DNA of 64,000 nt, from assembly GCF_003334785.1 (NCBI RefSeq), contig NZ_QOWV01000002.1; one strand, 5' to 3'. The DNA is from Escherichia coli. GTDB taxonomy: Bacteria; Pseudomonadota; Gammaproteobacteria; Enterobacterales; Enterobacteriaceae. The position numbers were made by a program, and so were the translations under genes. Position 1 is the first letter of the stretch. Each line of letters opens with the position of its first letter. The notes below the pieces were generated by a model, which did not search any database, was not told the DNA's origin, and saw only the letters and a program-made list of their open reading frames with translations. Below are positions 1,031-43,004 of the stretch, piece after piece.

Positions 1031-2178
<1,148 letters not shown>

Positions 2179-31790: not shown

Positions 31791-32513
31791 CTAAACGATG
31801 CGGCAGGCGTCGGCTTCCCAGCGGTAACCGACGCCATAAACGGCGCGGATAAATGACTGTTCGGCGTCGAGAGATTCCAGCTTGCGGCGCAGGTTTTTAA
31901 TGTGGCTGTCGATGGTGCGGTCGGTTACTACGCGGTAGTCGTCATAAAGATGATTGAGCAATTGCTCGCGGGAGAACACTTTTCCTGGTTCGTGAGAGAG
32001 CGTTTTCAGCAGACGAAATTCCGCAGGCGTCAGGTCAAGCATTTTACCGCGCCATGAAGCCTGAAAACGACCTTCGTCGATAATCAACGGGCTTTCAGCA
32101 TCCTGTTGCTGCAACTCGCGCTGCGGTTTGCAACGGCGCAAAATGGTTTTGACGCGCGCTACCACTTCCCGTGGGCTGTACGGCTTACAGATATAATCAT
32201 CTGCGCCAATCTCCAGCCCCAGCAGGCGATCGATCTCTTCGATTTTTGCCGTCACCATCACGATCGGAATGTCAGAAAAACGACGAATTTCCCGGCACAG
32301 CGTCAGGCCATCGGTGCCAGGGAGCATCAGATCTAACAGGATCAGATCCGGTGGTGTCTGGCGCACATACGGCAGTACCTGATCGCCGTGGCTGATAAGC
32401 GTCGGCGCATAGCTCGCAGCACGCAGATAATCAATGAGCAACTGCCCCAGCTTCGGTTCATCTTCCACGATCAAAATACGCGGTGTGTTTTCGTCGATTG
32501 GTAACTCGGTCAT
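31791..32513 (-). CDS. baeR: Response regulator BaeR (OmpR family, 240 aa)
   Basis: Receiver domain (LIVEDEP...DLMLPG) plus winged-helix C-terminus; follows baeS. Confidence 0.9.
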
Positions 32514-33913
32514 ACTTCTCTCTGTAAATCCCGTTCCAGCGGTAACTCTACTGTAATGCTTACCCCGCCAAAAGGCGAATGGGCAGCAATAATGCGACCA
32601 TTATGTGCTTCAACAATGTTCAGGCAAATCGCCAGCCCCAGCCCGGAACCGCCGCTGGCACGGTTGCGGGAACCTTCGGTGCGATAAAAACGTTCAAACA
32701 ATTTTTGTAGCTGATCGTCACTGACACCTGGCGCACTGTCGGCAAAGGTCAGGCGCACCGTTTTGTCGCGCTGCCCGGCAGAGATTTGCAGGCTGCCGCC
32801 GCTGTCAGTGTAGCGCAGGCTGTTTTCCAGTAAGTTATTGAATAACTGCATTAAACGGTCGCGATCGCCAAATACGGTAATACTGTCTGGCAGGGAAAAT
32901 TGCAGTTTCAGGCCACGACTGGCGAATCGTTCGCGAAATGCGCCGCCCGCCACTTCCAGCAGTGGGATCAAATCTACCGGTGCTTTTTGATAGGCGAGAG
33001 CGCCTTCATCAGACATCGACAACTGATGGAGATCGTCAACCAGTTTGGTCAGTGTACCGACCTCCGCCTGTAAAGACGCCACCGTCTCCGGCGTGAATTT
33101 ACGCACGCCATCCTGAATGGCTTCCAGTTCACCGCGCAGCACCGCTAATGGCGTACGCAGTTCGTGAGAAATATCGGCCATAAAATCGCGCCGCATTTGC
33201 TGGTTTTTCTCCAGTGTGCTGGCAAGCTGGTTGAAGTCTTGCGCCAGTTTGCCCAGTTCATCTTCACTGGTGGGCGTTACGCGGGTAGTGAAATCGCCCG
33301 CCGCCAGTTTGTGCGTGCCATCGACAAGTCGTTTTACCGGTGCCAGTAAACCGCGCGCCAGCAGAAAAGTGGCAAGTGCCGCGAGTAACGTTGCCAGGGC
33401 GACAATCAACCAGCTGGTTTGCCGCTGTTGTTTATCGAAATTGATATCAGTATTGCGCGTTAACCGCTCAACGGGGGAGGCGATCACCGCGCCAACTTCC
33501 GCACCGTTGACCAGAATGGGTCGCCGTGTACCGTCAGGTGGAATCGGCGCTCGCGGACCAACCAGCACTTTGTTGTTTTGATCAACCACCCAGAACTGGG
33601 TACGCCAGCCGTGCGGTGGCATACCCGGGCCGGGTTTATCTTCCGAATTATCGTGTTCAAATGAACGCAGGATCTGAAAGACAAAGCGATCATTGTTGCG
33701 CAGGAAGCGCCAGTTGCCATGCTGCGCATACTGCTCGCCAAGCGCATCACTTAACAGTTGTAATCGCTGTTCATTACCATGCTTGATGTAATCAATAAAG
33801 CCACGCTCAAAACTGATACGCACCGCCCAGTGCATACTGATCAGCAAGACAATGCAGGTGGCGAAAATCGCCAGAAACAGTTTGCCGGTAATACCGGGTC
33901 GCCAGAACTTCAT
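32510..33913 (-). CDS. baeS: Sensor histidine kinase BaeS (467 aa)
   Basis: Two TM segments, HAMP, H-box (SHELRTPL) and ATPase motifs; overlaps baeR start. Confidence 0.9.
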
Positions 33914-35325
33914 TGCGCGCTCCTTTTTCGCCGCGAAATAGCTACATTTTGATGCGTATCGTTCGGCACTCTGGCAAAGATGAACGCCGGAAGGGCGATG
34001 ATCAACGCCATGCTAAGCCAGGTGTACATAAAGACGGTTTGTGTGGTGCCGCTGTCGACGCTGACATGCTGTGAACCAAAAAGTCCCAGCAACAGCCCGG
34101 CGATAGTGACGCCGATACTCATCGACAATTGCATAATCATCGACAGCAGGCTGTTGCCGCTGCTCGCCAGATTGTCCGGGAGATCTTTCAGCGTCAGGGT
34201 GTTCATGGAGGAGAAACGCGTCGAGTTGACCATCCCTTGTAAAAACAGGACGAACGGCAAAACGTAGTACCAGCCCAGCAGGGCGGTAGTCATAAACAAC
34301 AGGGTGACCAGCGACAGACCCAGCGTGGTCGCTACCAGTACCCGACGATAACCAAAGCGATTCACCACCTGTACCACAATTCGCTTCATTCCCATGCTGC
34401 CAAGCACCATCGGGATCATCATCAGTCCGGCATGAAACGGCGAGAAACCGAGGCCAATTTGCAGGAAAACCGGTGTCATAAAGGGCAACATGCCACTGCC
34501 AATACGTCCGGCAAAGCTCCCCGCCAGGCCCAGCGAAAAGGTACGAGTACGGAACAGTTTCAGACTGAACAGGGCACGGTTGTTATTTCTGGCGTGCAGC
34601 AGATAAAGCACCAGTGCCACCACGCCAACTGCGACCAGGCCTGCAATCGTCAGCGGCGATAAACCTGTACCTTTACTGCCGTCCAGCGCCAGGGTTAATA
34701 CCGCCATGCCAACCGCCAGCAATAAAAATCCGGAGAGATCAAAGCGCCGCGTCTGCATGGTGTAGTTTGGCATTAACAGCAATGTGGCGATCGCACCGAT
34801 AATCCCCACCGGAATGTTGATCAAAAAGATCCAGTGCCACGATGCGTACTCCACCAGCAGACCGCCGAGCGCCGGACCGAGCAGCGGACCGACCTGACCG
34901 GGTAACGTGACAAAGGTCATCGCCGCCATATATTGCTCGCGCGGTACGATTTTCATCACCGTCAATCTGCCGACCGGCACCATCATCGCGCCGCCAACGC
35001 CCTGTAACGCGCGTGCCAGCAACAGTTCGTTCAGCGTGCCGGAAAGCGCGCAAAACAGTGAACCGAGAGTAAACAGCACGATGGCGGTAAAGAAAATATT
35101 GCGCACGCCGACTTTGTCCGCCAGCCAGCCGCTGGCGGGCAGCATCACCGCCACGGTCAGCACATAAGAGACAATGACCATGTGCATATGCAACGGACTT
35201 TCCCCGAGGCTTTGCGCCATTGAGGGAAGGGCGGTGTTTACGATGGTGGTGTCCAGCGACTGCATAAAGAAGCCGAAAGCCACAATCCACAATTGCCAAC
35301 GGGTGCTGTCGGGAAGATCTGTCAT
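33910..35325 (-). CDS. mdtD: MFS transporter MdtD (471 aa)
   Basis: Multi-TM MFS protein in mdtABCD-baeSR operon order. Confidence 0.9.
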
Positions 35326-38300
35326 TTACTCGGTTACCGTTTGTTTAGGTTTACGCGAAAAACGCAGCCGCAGACGGTCGAAAAAGAGATACACCACCGG
35401 CGTGGTATACAGCGTAAGGAGCTGGCTCATTACCAGTCCGCCGACAATGGTGATCCCCAGGGGTTGCCGCAGCTCCGAGCCGTCGCCGCCCGACAATACC
35501 AGCGGCAGCGCACCAAACAGCGCCGCCAGGGTAGTCATCATAATCGGGCGAAAACGCAGCAGACAGGCCTGGAAAATAGCTTCCTGCGGCGTCAGGTTAC
35601 CGTGCCGTTGGGCTTCAAGCGCAAAATCGACCATCATAATGGCGTTTTTCTTCACGATGCCGATTAATAGCATGATCCCTATCAGGGCGATTAGGCTGAA
35701 CGGGGCATTGAACAGCTCCAGCGCCAACAGCGCTCCAACGCCCGCCGAGGGCAGGGTGGAGAGAATCGTCAGCGGATGTACGTAACTCTCGTAAAGGATA
35801 CCCAGCACGATATACACCGTGGCGATGGCGGCGATAATCAGGATCACCTGCGAGTTCATCGTCTCCTGGAACACCTGCGCCGTGCCGGCAAAACTGCCGC
35901 GCACCGTCGAAGGCACACCAAGCTGGGTCATTGCGCGATCGATCGCCGCACTGGCGTCCGAGAGCGATTTTCCGGTCGGCAGGTTAAACGAAATGGTCGA
36001 GGCCGCCGATAATCCCTGATGATTCACCGATAGTGGGGCATTCGCCGGTTGCCATTTAGCGAAATACGACAGCGGGATCGCTTTGCCTTCGTTATTGATA
36101 ACGAACATTTTTTCCAGCGCACTGATGTCCTGGGTATAGCGCGGATCCACTTCCATCACCACTTTATACTGGTTCATCGGCTGGTAAATGGTCGAGATTT
36201 GCCGCTGACCGAAGGCGTTATTTAACAGACTGTTGGCGGCTTGTACGTCGATTCCCAGCCGTGCCATGGTGTCGCGGTCGTAAACCAGATTCATCTCCGC
36301 GCCGTTATCCTGCTGATCGGAGTTCACGTCCGCCAGTTCCGGCAACGTCGCCAGTTTTTTGCGGATTTTCGGCTCCCATTCTCGCAGTGCCGCCAGGTCG
36401 TCGGATAACAACGTGTACTGGTAGCTGGCGTTCGACTGACGCCCACCAACGCGAATATCCTGTACCGCCATCAGGAACAGATTCGCCCCCGGTTCTTTCG
36501 CCAGTTTTACGCGCAGACGGTCGATAATTTGCTGCGCCGTTTCGCTGCGTTCGTCGCGTGGCTTGAGGGTGATAAACATCATCCCGCTGTTCACTCGCGA
36601 ACCGCCTGTAAAGCCGGTGACATTATCCACTGCCGGATCGTCACGGATAATTTTCATGAAATCCTGCAACTTACCGCGCATCGCCTGAAACGAAATACTC
36701 TGATCCGCCTGAATCCCGCCCATCAACACGCCAGTGTCCTGCTCCGGGAAGAAGGTTTTCGGGATCGAGATATACAGCCAGATATTCAGCGCAATGGTGC
36801 CAAGCAGCACCACGCCCACCAGACGGGTATGATTGAGCACCCATTTCAGTGACTTGCCGTAGCCTTGTTGCAGGGCTACCAACATGCGACCAAAACCACG
36901 CAGTCGCTTTTGCTCGCGCGGCTTGCTGGCTTTCAGCATCCAGCCACACATCATTGGCGTTAATGTCAGAGAAACCAGCAACGATATACCAATGGCGACA
37001 GAAAGCGTCACGGCAAATTCGCGTAACAGTCGGCCCGGCAATCCGCCCATCAACAGCAGCGGCAGGAACACCGCCACCAGTGACAGACTCATCGACAGCA
37101 CCGTAAAACCGACTTCGCGAGTACCTTGCAGTGCGGCTTGCAACGGTTTCATTCCCGCTTCCAGATGACGTGCAATGTTTTCCAGCACCACGATGGCGTC
37201 ATCCACCACGAAACCAGTAGCGATGGTGAGCGCCATTAACGAAAGGTTATTGAGACTGAATCCGCACAGGTACATCGCCGCAAACGTACCAATCAGCGAA
37301 ACCGGCACCGAAACGGCGGGAATAATAGTGGCGCGACCCGAGCGCAGGAATAAAAACACCACCAGAATCACCAGCGCCACCGAGATAATCAGCGTTTGCT
37401 CGACTTCTTCCAGCGAGGCGCGAATGGTGGGGGAGCGATCCTGGGCAATTTGCAGATCAATCGCCGCCGGAATGGTTTCCTGCAACTCCGGTAATTTTGC
37501 CCGGATGCTGTCAACCGTCTGGATAATATTGGCTTCCGGCAGTTTGCGGATCATCAGTAAAATAGCCGGTTTGGCGTTGGTCATCCCGGCGTTGCGCACA
37601 TCCTGCACTGAGTCGGTCACCGTCGCCACATCGCCCAGACGAACCGCGCCGCCGTTGTTGTAGTGAATAATCAACGGCTGATATTCAGCGGCGGTTTTTA
37701 GCTCATCATTGGTCTGGATCTGCCAGCGGTGAGTGCCATCTTCCAGCGCGCCCTGCGGTTTACGCACGTTGGCATTGCTGACGGCGGTGCGTACGTCGTC
37801 CAGCGACACGCCCTGATTAAACAGCGCCTGCGGATTCAGCCCGACGCGTACGGCGGGCAGTGAGCTGCCTCCGACATCGACATCACCAACACCGTCGATT
37901 TGCGAAATCGTCGGAGCCAGCTGCGTCGAGGCGAAATCGTACAGTTCACCCTGCGAATAAGTATCGGACGTCAGCGTGAGGATCATAATTGGCGCATCCG
38001 ACGGGTTCGCTTTGCGATAGGTCGGGCGGCTGGGCATCCCACTGGGCAGCAAACTTTGTGCAGCGTTGATCGCCGCCTGCACATCACGCGCTGCGCCGTT
38101 GATATCCCGGTCAAAATCAAACTGCAAAATAATACGCGTGCTGCCGAGCGAACTGCTGGAGGTCATTTCACTGACTCCGGCAATGCGCCCAAGTGAGCGC
38201 TCCAGCGGCGTGGCAACGGAAGACGCCATTGTTTCTGGTGACGCACCGGGCAGCGAGGCGCTGACCATAATCACCGGAAAATCGACCTGCGGCAGCGGGG

Positions 38301-38403
38301 CGACCGGCAGCATACGGAAGCCCAGTATGCCGCACAGGGTAATGGCAACCGACAGTAAAATCGTCGCCACCGGACGGTAAATGAAGAGGGCAAAAAACTT
38401 CAC
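35326..38403 (-). CDS. mdtC: RND efflux pump subunit MdtC (1025 aa)
   Basis: AcrB-like RND transporter; operon position. Confidence 0.9.
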
Positions 38404-41400
38404 TTACGCCTCCTCTTCATGACGGGCAAAGCGGCTTTTGGTCCACAATGCCAGGCGGTCGAACAGCAGATAAATCACCGGCGTGGTGAACAGCGTCAGC
38501 ACCTGGCTGACAATCAGGCCGCCGACCATGCCGATACCTAACGGACGACGCAGTTCCGCGCCGACCCCGGTACTCAACATCAGCGGCAGCGCGCCAAGCA
38601 GAGCCGCCAGGGTGGTCATCAGGATCGGACGAAAACGCAACAGACAAGCCTGGTAGATTGCCTCGCGCGGCGACATGCCTTGCTCGCGCTCGGCAGCCAG
38701 CGCGAAGTCGATCATCATGATGGCGTTCTTCTTCACGATACCGATCAGCAAAATAATGCCGATAATCGCAATCACATCCAGTTCGCTACCAGCAATCAGC
38801 AACGCCAGCAGTGCGCCAACCCCTGCGGTGGGTAGCGTCGAGAGAATGGTGATCGGGTGAATAAAGCTCTCGTACAGAATGCCGAGCACGATATACATCG
38901 CCACCACCGCCGCGACAATCAGCCAGACAGTGCTGCCCAGCGCCGACTGGAAGGCGAGGGTGCTGCCCTGGAACTGCGTGGTGATATCCACCGGCAGATT
39001 CAGCGTCTTTTCGGTGTCCATAATCGCCTGCACCGCATCGCCCAGCGAATAGTTATCCGGCACGTTAAAGGAGATGGTCGTTACCGGGAACTGATCCAGA
39101 TGGTTGATGGAGAGCGGCGCAAAACGCTGCTCAATTTTGGCAATTGAGCTTAGCGGCACCACGCCGCCGTCGCTGCTGGTCAGGCGAATGGTATCCAGCG
39201 CCGCGAGGCCTGGGGTATTTTCGGTGTTGTGCTCCAGCACCACGCGATACTGGTTGGCCTGAGTATAAATAGTGGAAATCAGCCGCTGACCAAACGCGTT
39301 GTACAGGGCGTTATCGACATCCGCCATGCTGATCCCCAGACGGCTGGCGCTGTCGCGATCAACATTGACATACGCCACCAGCCCTTTGTCCTGCCAGTCG
39401 CTGGAGACATCAGAAAGCTGTGGCAGTTGCTGGAGTTTTTCCATCAACTGTGGCACCCAGGTACTGAGCGCATCCAGTGACGTGGCCTGCAAGGTAAACT
39501 GGTACTGGGTGCGGCTGACCTGAGTATCAATAGTCAGATCCTGCGTTGGTTGCAGGAAGAGATCGACGCCCGGCACTTTATCTACCGCCGTTTGCAGACG
39601 GGCGATGACTTTTTGCACCCGATCATCACGTTCATCCAACGGTTTGAGGTTGATTTGTAAACGTGCACTGTTCAGCGACGGGTTAGTGCCATCAACGCCA
39701 ACAAATGAGGTCAGGCTTTGCACTGCCGGATCCTGCAAAATCACGTCCGCGACCTGGCGTTGTCGCTGGGCCATATTGGCAAAGGAGCTGGATTGCGGTG
39801 CCTGCAAAGTGCCCTGAATAATGCCATTGTCCTGTACCGGGAAGAAACCTTTCGGAATGAACACCCACAGCAGCACGCTAAGCAGCAGCGTGCTGAGTGC
39901 CACGCTTAAGGTCAGCCACGGATGATTCAGCACTTTCGCCAGTCCACGACCATAGGCGGCGATTATCCTGTCGAACATTTTTTCCGAGGCACGGGAGAAG
40001 CGGTTCTGTTTACGCAACGACTCCTGGCTGAGCATCCGCGCGCACATCATCGGTGTCAGGGTCAGCGACACCACCGCTGAGATCAAAATCGCTACCGCCA
40101 GGGTAATAGCAAATTCGCGGAACAGTCGCCCGACGATATCGCCCATAAACAGCAGTGGGATCAACACCGCAATCAGTGAGAAGGTCAGCGAGATAATGGT
40201 AAAGCCGATTTCACCTGCGCCCTTGAGCGCCGCCGCCAACGGTTTTTCGCCTTTTTCGATATAGCGGGAAATGTTTTCGATCACCACGATGGCGTCATCG
40301 ACCACGAATCCGGTGGCGATAGTTAACGCCATCAGTGTCAGGTTATTGATTGAAAAATCGAGAAACACCATAACCGCGAAAGTGCCGATTAACGACAGCG
40401 GTACAGCAACACCGGGAATGATGGTCGCCGGAATATTGCGCAAAAACAGGTAGATAATCATGACTACCAGCGCGATAGCCATCATCAATTCAAACTGAGT
40501 ATCATCGACGGATGCGCGGATATTGGTGGTGCGATCGGAAAGCACTGTCACCTTCACCGATTTCGGCAGACTCTCAGTGAGCTGTGGCAGCATCTGCCGA
40601 ATGCTGTCGGCGGTGGAGATAATGTTAGCACCGGGCTGGCGCTGAACATTCATCACAATGGCCTGTTCTTTGTTCGCCCACGCGCCGAGCCAGCTGTTTT
40701 CTGCACCTTGCTCTACAGTTGCGACATCGCCCAGACGAATTGGCGCGCCGTTCTGGTAGGCGATGATTAGCTGGCGATACTCTTCGGCGGATTGCATCTG
40801 GTCGTTCGCGGAAAGCGTGACCGCACGGGAAGGGCCGTCGAGGCTACCTTTTGCCGAGTTAACGTTAGCGCCGGTAATGGCGGTGCGCACGGTTTCGCTG
40901 GTCAGGCCGAGGGCGGCAATCGCCTGAGCGTTAAGTTTGACGCGAACAGCCGGACGCTGACCGCCGGAAAGCGTCACCAGGCCGACGCCGGAAATCTGCG
41001 AGATTTTCTGCGCGACGCGGGTTTCCACCATATCTTCCACTTGCGTCATCGGCATGGCGGTTGAGGTGACGGCGAGCGTCATGATCGGCGGATCTGCCGG
41101 GTTCACTTTGCTGTAAACCGGCGGGTTAGGCAGATCGCTCGGCAACAAGTTGGTCGCAGCGTTAATCGCGGCCTGCACTTCCTGCTCGGCGACATCGAGC
41201 GGTAATGTTAGCTGGAACTGCAAAGTGATAACTGACGCACCGCCGGAACTTTGCGACGACATCTGTTTCAGGCCAGACATCTGCCCGAACTGGCGTTCTA
41301 GCGGCGCGGTAACGGCAGAGGTCATGACATCCGGGCTGGCACCTGGGTAGAGCGTGACCACCTGAATGGTCGGATAGTCCACTTCCGGCAGCGCCGAAAC

Positions 41401-41526
41401 GGGCAGGGTGCGATAACCGATAATCCCGGCGAGTAAGATCGCCACCATCAGCAGCGTGGTGGCCACAGGACGCATAATAAACAGGCGCGACGGGCCGCCT
41501 GTGCTGCTCGGGGGTAACACCTGCAT
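38404..41526 (-). CDS. mdtB: RND efflux pump subunit MdtB (1040 aa)
   Basis: AcrB-like RND transporter; operon position. Confidence 0.9.
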
Positions 41527-42773
41527 CAGGAGCGTGCTCCTTTTTTCGCGTATTCGCGGCTGGTGGCTTTCTCTTCCGGAGTAGTGGCGCTCTGGGCTTC
41601 CACCACTTCCACTTTCGCCCCTTCGGTCAGGCGATCAATGCCGTCTGTCACCACGCGATCGCCCGCAGAAATACCTGCACGGATCACCACTTTCTGACTG
41701 TCCTGAATGCCCGGCGTCACCAGATGTTTGCTGACCTTGTTTTCGCTATTCAGCACCCAGACAAAATGGCCTTCATTGCCCATTTGCAGGGCGGCTGTTG
41801 GGATCACTACGGCGTTTTGTTCGGTGTCGACTAACATGCGCGCGTTAACAAACTGATTGGGAAACAGCGCATCATCCTGATTATTAAAGCGTGCTTTCAC
41901 TTTAATCGTACCGGTAGTGGCATCGATTTGGTTATCTAGACTTAACAGCGTGCCTTCACTTAATTTCTTCGAGTTGGTGCGATCCCAGGCTTCTACCACC
42001 AGCGGTTTTCCGGTTTTCTGCGCCTGCACTACGGTAGCGATATCGCTTTCCGGCAGGGTAAAGACTAAATCGATAGGATGCGTCTGGGTGATCACCACGA
42101 TCCCGGTGGTATCACCACTGGAGATTTGGTTACCAACATCAACCTGCTTGAGACCAACGCGACCATCGACTGGTGCGGTAATCCGGCTCCAGTCGAGTTG
42201 CAGCTGCGCGCTGGCAACGCTTGCTTCATCAGCCTTAATGGTGCCTTCGGTTTCACTGACCAGCGCCTGTTGGGCATCCAGCTCCTGGCGGGAAACGAGA
42301 TTGGTTTTTGCCAGTTGTTGATAACGCGCCAGGTCACGGCGGGCGTTGGCAAGCGTGGCTTTATCTTTTGCCAGTTGGCCCTGGGCTTGTGCTAATGCAA
42401 CTTTGAACTGGCTGGGGTCAATTTCTGCCAGTAAATCGCCTGCTTTGACCTGCTGGCCTTCCTGGAAATGTAACGCTATCAGTTGGCCGTCCACGCGGCT
42501 GCGCACCGTAACGGTATTAGCGGCGGTAATGGTGCCAAGCCCGGTGAGGTAACGCGGAACTGCCTGTTCTACGGCGGTCGCCGCCTGAACCGGGGCTAAT
42601 GGGCCGGAACGCATACCACGTCGACCACCCGCTGGCGATTGCTGCGCTTGTTTCGTCGCCCCTGGGGCTGCACTCCGGGAGTCATTGCGGCCTTGCCAGA
42701 ACCAGAATGCGGCGATGGCGGCGATAACCACCACGATTACGATTACCCAACGGGATTTATAACTACCTTTCAT
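41526..42773 (-). CDS. mdtA: Membrane fusion protein MdtA (415 aa)
   Basis: [28 protein letters not shown]... start chosen inside the longer track ORF to give 415 aa. Confidence 0.9.
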
Positions 42774-42822
42774 CGTTAAGAGTTTCTCTTCCTGAAACGT
42801 TTCGCGGAATGATACTAGTGTA

Positions 42823-42844
42823 GCCAGCCAATAAGGGAGAAAAA
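42823..42844 (-). promoter_or_regulatory. BaeR-box-like site upstream of mdtA (TTTTTCTCCCTTATTGGCTGGC on the minus strand)
   Basis: Resembles the reported BaeR binding consensus TTTTTCTCCATDATTGGC; located about 50-70 bp upstream of the mdtA start. Confidence 0.45.
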
Positions 42845-43004
42845 TGGAGGAATTATGAAACACTGTCGGGAATCGTCTGAATGACGGGCACATTTGCGAG
42901 CACGCATCCAGTAATAACACAGGAAACTATTTTATCTACGCGTTAGCGATAGACTGCTTGCATGGCGAAAGGAGGTAAGCCGCAGATTTCAGCCGGATGC
43001 TGAA

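Follow-up and report, generated by a model that had tools for sequence, protein, structure and literature searches.

The binding site of BaeR in E. coli has been summarized by the 18-bp consensus TTTTTCTCCATDATTGGC (Nishino et al. 2005), which is quoted identically in PMC3799227, PMC3915751, and PMC11644481. The sites behind this consensus are that of mdtA (yegM) and those of spy, acrD, and ycaC, and a conserved CTNCA core has been reported within the BaeR box (Guerrero et al. 2013). The mdtABCD-baeSR operon is described in the literature as autoregulated (PMC8308502), and direct binding by BaeR is stated in the secondary literature. In K-12, a BaeR ChIP-exo dataset (PMC7657598, Data Set S2) contains two peaks before mdtA, peak_5 (2153931-2153967) and peak_6 (2153972-2153998), with signal-to-noise values of 10.96 and 14.99, respectively, the highest among all BaeR peaks. 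In the presence of ethanol, knockout of baeR changed the log2 expression of mdtA by -4.0 and that of mdtB by -3.8, a drop of approximately 16-fold, and mdtA, mdtB, mdtC, iceT, and baeS were down 10- to 25-fold (PMC7657598). For BaeR itself, the PDB holds structure 4B09 and no complex with DNA or with RNA polymerase.

The 64-kb stretch of E. coli DNA analyzed here (the window) carries the whole operon on its minus strand. It begins with mdtA (41526..42773, 415 aa; NCBIfam NF008589, 722 bits), followed by mdtB (38404..41526, 1040 aa; from the annotation and the open reading frame list), mdtC (35326..38403, 1025 aa; its identity was inferred from position and length), mdtD, also called iceT (33910..35325; NF007799, 969 bits), baeS (32510..33913; NF007837, 930 bits), and baeR (31791..32513; NF007982, 450 bits, with a full-length match to PDB 4B09), which encodes the regulator that binds the box. 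These six genes are contiguous, and their stops and starts either abut or overlap by 4 nt, as is the case for baeS with both mdtD and baeR. The scores of MdtA, MdtD, BaeS, and BaeR are above the curated NCBIfam cut-offs. Positive autoregulation fits this locus, as the genes from mdtA to baeR are contiguous and co-directional. The autoregulated expression of mdtABCD-baeSR proposed by the sequence-only reading is therefore well founded, given the gene order on a single strand, the NCBIfam identities, the published description of the operon, and its BaeR-dependent expression.

A transcription start site (TSS) labeled as novel and assigned to baeR-yegP was also reported in K-12 by SMRT-Cappable-seq, at position 2164245 (PMC6131387). 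It corresponds to approximately 32544 (minus strand) in the window, roughly 30 nt upstream of the ATG of baeR and within the 3' end of baeS, with a -10 hexamer TACAGT at 32550-32555 (minus strand). Because this start is preceded by a fitting -10 hexamer, an internal promoter may also drive production of BaeR without the mdtA promoter.

Upstream of mdtA, the 22-mer TTTTTCTCCCTTATTGGCTGGC was found at 42844 to 42823 by reading the reverse complement of the window, i.e., the mdtA strand. It is the published 18-bp BaeR box of mdtA, TTTTTCTCCCTTATTGGC (42827..42844, minus strand), extended to 42823, and the box lies 54-71 nt 5' of the mdtA ATG (42773). The box matches the consensus TTTTTCTCCATDATTGGC at 17/18 positions, the sole mismatch being a C for an A at position 10. 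The sequence from the box through the ATG is identical in K-12 MG1655, so this departure from the consensus is the K-12 base itself. No second match to the consensus was found in the window. Matches with at most one mismatch were obtained in 0/100 dinucleotide-preserving shuffles, and the chance expectation for matches with up to three mismatches is 0.17 in 64 kb. It should be noted that the resemblance to the consensus is partly circular, as the identical K-12 mdtA site is among the few sites from which the consensus was derived. A different published motif, the Yamamoto 9-mer TCTNCANAA, was found 7 times in the window for 7.35 matches expected, and none of these is in the mdtA upstream region; this motif is uninformative for the site.

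Compared with the K-12 mdtA box, we found no difference in sequence, position, strand, or downstream operon. The K-12 spy box TTTTTCTCCATAATTGGC and acrD box TTTTTCTCCACGATTGGC both have TTTTTCTCC and ATTGGC in common with the mdtA box but differ from it at positions 10-12. Thus, the BaeR-box-like sequence proposed at 42823-42844 is exactly placed, unique in the window, and aligned with its known counterparts: the K-12 mdtA site is identical and the spy site shares TTTTTCTCC and ATTGGC. It is the BaeR site already published for the K-12 mdtA promoter, hence an ordinary feature that is known for E. coli. Many E. coli chromosomes carry a 361-nt segment spanning the site with 100% identity, annotated there as mdtA and an Ibs toxin gene, and the 91-nt promoter core was found in 5417/5426 complete E. 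coli genomes at at least 95% identity.

The limits 42774-42920 given to the region by the sequence-only reading correspond to no feature boundary; they are set by the ATG on one side and, on the other, by the most distant in-frame GTG of a mechanically called open reading frame. This 464-aa frame (41526-42920, minus strand) simply extends mdtA in frame to the GTG at 42920: that codon lies upstream of both mapped TSSs described below, and mdtA is annotated as starting at the ATG at 42773. Further upstream, two SIB_RNA (RF00113) antitoxin genes, sibB/ibsB and sibA/ibsA, are encoded at 43037-43179 and 43366-43514 (both minus strand). They are co-directional with mdtA, and each is antisense to an 18/19-aa Ibs toxin open reading frame, with one ibs frame at 43052-43108 (plus strand). 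Approximately 190 nt separate the 3' end of SibB from the BaeR box downstream.

When the K-12 ChIP-exo peaks were transferred to the window, peak_5 fell at 42858-42822 and contained the whole 18-mer, while peak_6 fell at 42817-42791 and spanned the -10 block and TSS, with the reservation that the boundaries of such peaks vary with the peak caller used. The in vivo BaeR footprint mapped in K-12 is therefore on the box and not elsewhere. The box is thus upstream of and co-oriented with BaeR-dependent mdtA, and it is occupied by BaeR in vivo in the published K-12 data. Beyond the general fact that short motifs can arise by chance, nothing speaks for a fortuitous resemblance with no regulatory role. 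The shuffles, the correct position and orientation before a BaeR-dependent gene, and the documented occupancy all argue against it, and with the ChIP-exo and expression data in direct contradiction, we regard this explanation as hardly credible. Elsewhere in the same K-12 dataset, there is no BaeR peak at acrD, and the peaks at the so-called direct targets tnaA, intF, and sspA have neither the box nor phased hexamers.

The geometry of the promoter was derived from TSSs mapped by SMRT-Cappable-seq in uninduced MG1655 cells grown in M9 or rich medium (NC_000913.3 coordinates; PMC6131387, Supplementary Data 2). Two starts precede mdtA (b2074), at K-12 positions 2153986 and 2153978 (each ±1 nt), which correspond to 42803 and 42811 (minus strand) in the window. 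No start near mdtA is listed in the Cappable-seq supplement (PMC4782308). Based on conservation and TSS spacing, we assigned the -10 block to TACACTAGTATCAT (42809..42822, minus strand), which contains the overlapping -10 candidates TACACT, TAGTAT, and TATCAT. Candidate hexamers are present 6-7 nt upstream of both mapped TSSs, and the two starts are located 8-16 nt past the block. The form TA[A/C]ACTAGTATCAT of the block was found in 69/80 species of the comparison described below. By direct reading of the promoter sequence, no -35 hexamer with more than 2-3/6 matches was found. The 3' end of the 18-mer is 9 bp before TAGTAT, and the box extends from about -42 to -25 relative to the TSS at 42803 and from -34 to -17 relative to that at 42811. 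Since the K-12 TSSs map to these two positions, the box overlaps the -35 region.

This layout is the one known from Pho boxes and further class II activator sites, and BaeR is predicted to contact RNA polymerase here, through sigma-70 region 4 or the alpha-CTD. BaeR belongs to the same OmpR/PhoB family, and the mdtA operator resembles the Pho box in that it is built of direct repeats with a 10-11 bp phase and ends approximately 9 bp before the -10 hexamer, in place of a poor -35. The sequence of the BaeR half-site, in contrast, is unlike that of the Pho box half-site. The arrangement also differs from that at spy, where the box is approximately 80-100 bp upstream of the promoter elements, while that of mdtA is over the -35 region.

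A scan of a genome collection with MdtA yielded 80 loci from different Enterobacteriaceae species, 79 of which are covered by the promoter alignment. Hexamers were counted in the 80 species without gaps, anchored on the -10 block; the species are related, so the counts below are of non-independent events. Three blocks are nearly invariant across the 79 promoters: TTTCATAATTCCTCCATTTTT (42860-42840), the -10 block (42822-42807), and a leader block GTTTCAGGAAGAG (42798-42786). The first of these holds the direct repeat TTTCAT-N5-CTCCAT (42860-42844), itself nearly invariant and with a constant spacing to the -10 block. Taken together with the core of the published box, the region reads TTTCAT-N5-CTCCAT-N4-CTCCCT, i.e., direct repeats phased at approximately 10-11 bp.

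We named these hexamers R1, R2, and R3. R1 (TTTCAT, 42855..42860, minus strand), a putative half-site recognized by its conservation and by the uniqueness of the pattern, is 11 bp upstream of R2; among the 80 species, it reads TTTCAT in 51, TTCCAT in 18, and CTTCAT in 4, and it fits YTYCAY in almost all. R2 (CTCCAT, 42844..42849, minus strand) is 10 bp upstream of R3 and is the most conserved of the three: it reads CTCCAT in 75 species and CTTCAT in another 4, with a constant location 26 nt 5' of TAGTAT. R3 (CTCCCT, 42834..42839, minus strand), the promoter-proximal core of the published box, is present at this register in 20/80 species, all of them Escherichia or Citrobacter, and the ATTGGC flank (42832-42827) is present in 4/80. 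In the window, YTYCAT-N5-YTYCAT has a single match, R1-R2 (chance expectation 0.25), and YTYCWT-N4-CTCCMY has a single match, R2-R3.

The divergence of the published box was confirmed by block identities to E. coli. In the 57 species outside Escherichia and Citrobacter, the R1-R2 block has an identity of 0.92, while the 13 nt at the 3' end of the 18-mer (42839-42827) have an identity of 0.38, versus 0.35 for far-upstream DNA. For the 18-mer as a whole, the identity is 0.87 in Escherichia/Citrobacter and 0.55 elsewhere, or 0.38 without the T-run. Indeed, only Escherichia and Citrobacter retain CTCCCTTATTGGC, which makes up the 3' two-thirds of the box. This pattern would place the constrained segment approximately 10 bp further upstream than the published box. 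Three YTYCAT-like hexamers in phase probably make up the operator; the flagged 22-mer contains the one nearest the promoter, which is also the least conserved. Since the core constrained across genera lies just 5' of the 22-mer, the latter probably covers the operator only in part.

These observations could also be taken further. The real constrained BaeR element at mdtA could be the upstream pair R1-R2 (42860-42844), with the 18-mer being either a lineage-specific extra half-site or the product of a mis-registered consensus; the 18-mer would then meet the real core only via its TTTTT run. We consider this a possibility of some weight, although not the favored one. The hexamer counts and the block identities point in this direction, as does the CTNCA core, which is complete in R2 and absent from R3: at that core, the flagged 18-mer reads CTCCC, while the hexamer 10 bp upstream (42849-42844) reads CTCCAT. 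At spy, the sequence CATAATCTCTGCAAAATCATC of ChIP-exo peak_2 resembles TTCATAATTCCTCCA, and in Salmonella and Citrobacter, to which the comparison of spy promoters beyond E. coli extended, the variation of the spy box core stays within YTYCAY. On the other hand, the center of peak_5 in E. coli (approximately 42840) is closer to R2-R3 than to the center of R1-R2 (approximately 42852), ATTGGCG at spy is conserved in three genera, and prediction of a BaeR-induced gene of Klebsiella with the 18-mer has been reported; R1 is itself a putative half-site. As for the pair bound by a BaeR dimer, the peak center thus favors R2-R3 in E. coli and conservation favors R1-R2. We would only tentatively propose that the published consensus is mis-registered and that the constrained unit is YTYCAT repeated at 10-11 bp. 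If so, the ancestral dimer site of mdtA may be TTTCAT-N5-CTCCAT (42860-42844), one helical turn 5' of the published box, and CTCCCTTATTGGC may be recent in Escherichia/Citrobacter.

The opposite explanation is that the BaeR site comprises nothing beyond the published 18-mer and that the upstream block is a UP-like element, a site for another regulator, or part of a second promoter with CATAAT (42857-42852) as its -10. A promoter scan did detect a sigma-70-like sequence, TTCAGA-18-CATAAT, at 42881-42852 (minus strand) that overlaps R1, and further upstream, CAGAC and GACAGT are likewise conserved. This candidate is not taken to be the main promoter, since SMRT-Cappable-seq in K-12 lists no TSS following it near 42845. 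Moreover, the upstream block keeps an invariant spacing to the mdtA -10, lies within the BaeR ChIP-exo peak, and is not a CpxR box: GTAAA-N5-GTAAA had 0 matches with up to two mismatches in 42774-43000, and CpxR ChIP-exo lists no peak at mdtA. We therefore find this explanation unlikely and retain an operator of three hexamers, which appears to describe the site better than the 18-mer alone.

The two flanks of the operator and promoter are also conserved. Just 5' of R1, TCAGACGATTCCCGACAGTG (42861-42880, minus strand) is conserved across genera, chiefly in CAGAC and GACAGT, with an identity of 0.75 in distant genera. This block could be a fourth phased half-site (TTCCNG, 42871-42866) or the site of another factor, but it is not a CpxR box. 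At the other end, the leader block GTTTCAGGAAGAG (42786-42798, minus strand), nearly invariant in the 79 species, is where the stronger ChIP-exo peak, peak_6, ends; its AGGA is 16 nt from the mdtA ATG, too far for a usual Shine-Dalgarno sequence.

The sites on which the consensus is based were compared with the phased arrangement. A YTYCWT hexamer precedes the core by 10-11 bp in three of them: CTCCAT-N4-CTCCCT at mdtA, CTCCTT-N5-CTCCAC at acrD, and TTTCTT-N5-CTCCAT at spy. In the K-12 spy upstream stretch, the ChIP-exo peaks (178-212 and 324-344) flank the published box (266-283) without covering it, and it is the upstream one that is similar to the R1-R2 block of mdtA. For ycaC, also cited as a BaeR site, the K-12 upstream region (1059-1371, minus strand) has no match to the 18-mer with up to five mismatches; it contains three copies of AAATTTCAT. 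A metagenome scan for TTTTTCTYCAYNATTGGC returned spy and acrD of E. coli and unrelated environmental chance matches, and no other genera. Beyond BaeR, the DzrR box of Dickeya and Burkholderia is similar in that two direct CTCCAT repeats precede the desAB RND pump genes and are bound by an OmpR-family regulator. DzrR, however, is AdeR-like, independent of phosphorylation, and not BaeR, so the likeness is a parallel only.

Taken together, the flagged sequence very probably belongs to the operator through which BaeR acts on the sigma-70 promoter of mdtABCD-baeSR in E. coli. According to the proposed mechanism, BaeR would bind the phased direct repeats R1 (starting at 42860), R2 (42849), and R3 (42839), followed by ATTGGC. 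The bound repeats would overlap the weak -35 region, and binding would help RNA polymerase to start at 42803 and/or 42811, so that either or both starts are predicted to be BaeR-dependent. The raised output of the MdtABC efflux pump, MdtD, BaeS, and BaeR would constitute positive autoregulation.

Through this site, both a stress-induced efflux pump for multiple drugs and metals and the autoregulation of the BaeSR envelope-stress system are controlled. For E. coli, its confirmation brings nothing new, and the added value lies only in the cross-genus footprint. If the constrained core is indeed the upstream YTYCAT repeat, searching pathogens such as Klebsiella and Enterobacter for members of the BaeR regulon with the E. 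coli 18-mer would overlook sites or put them in the wrong place.
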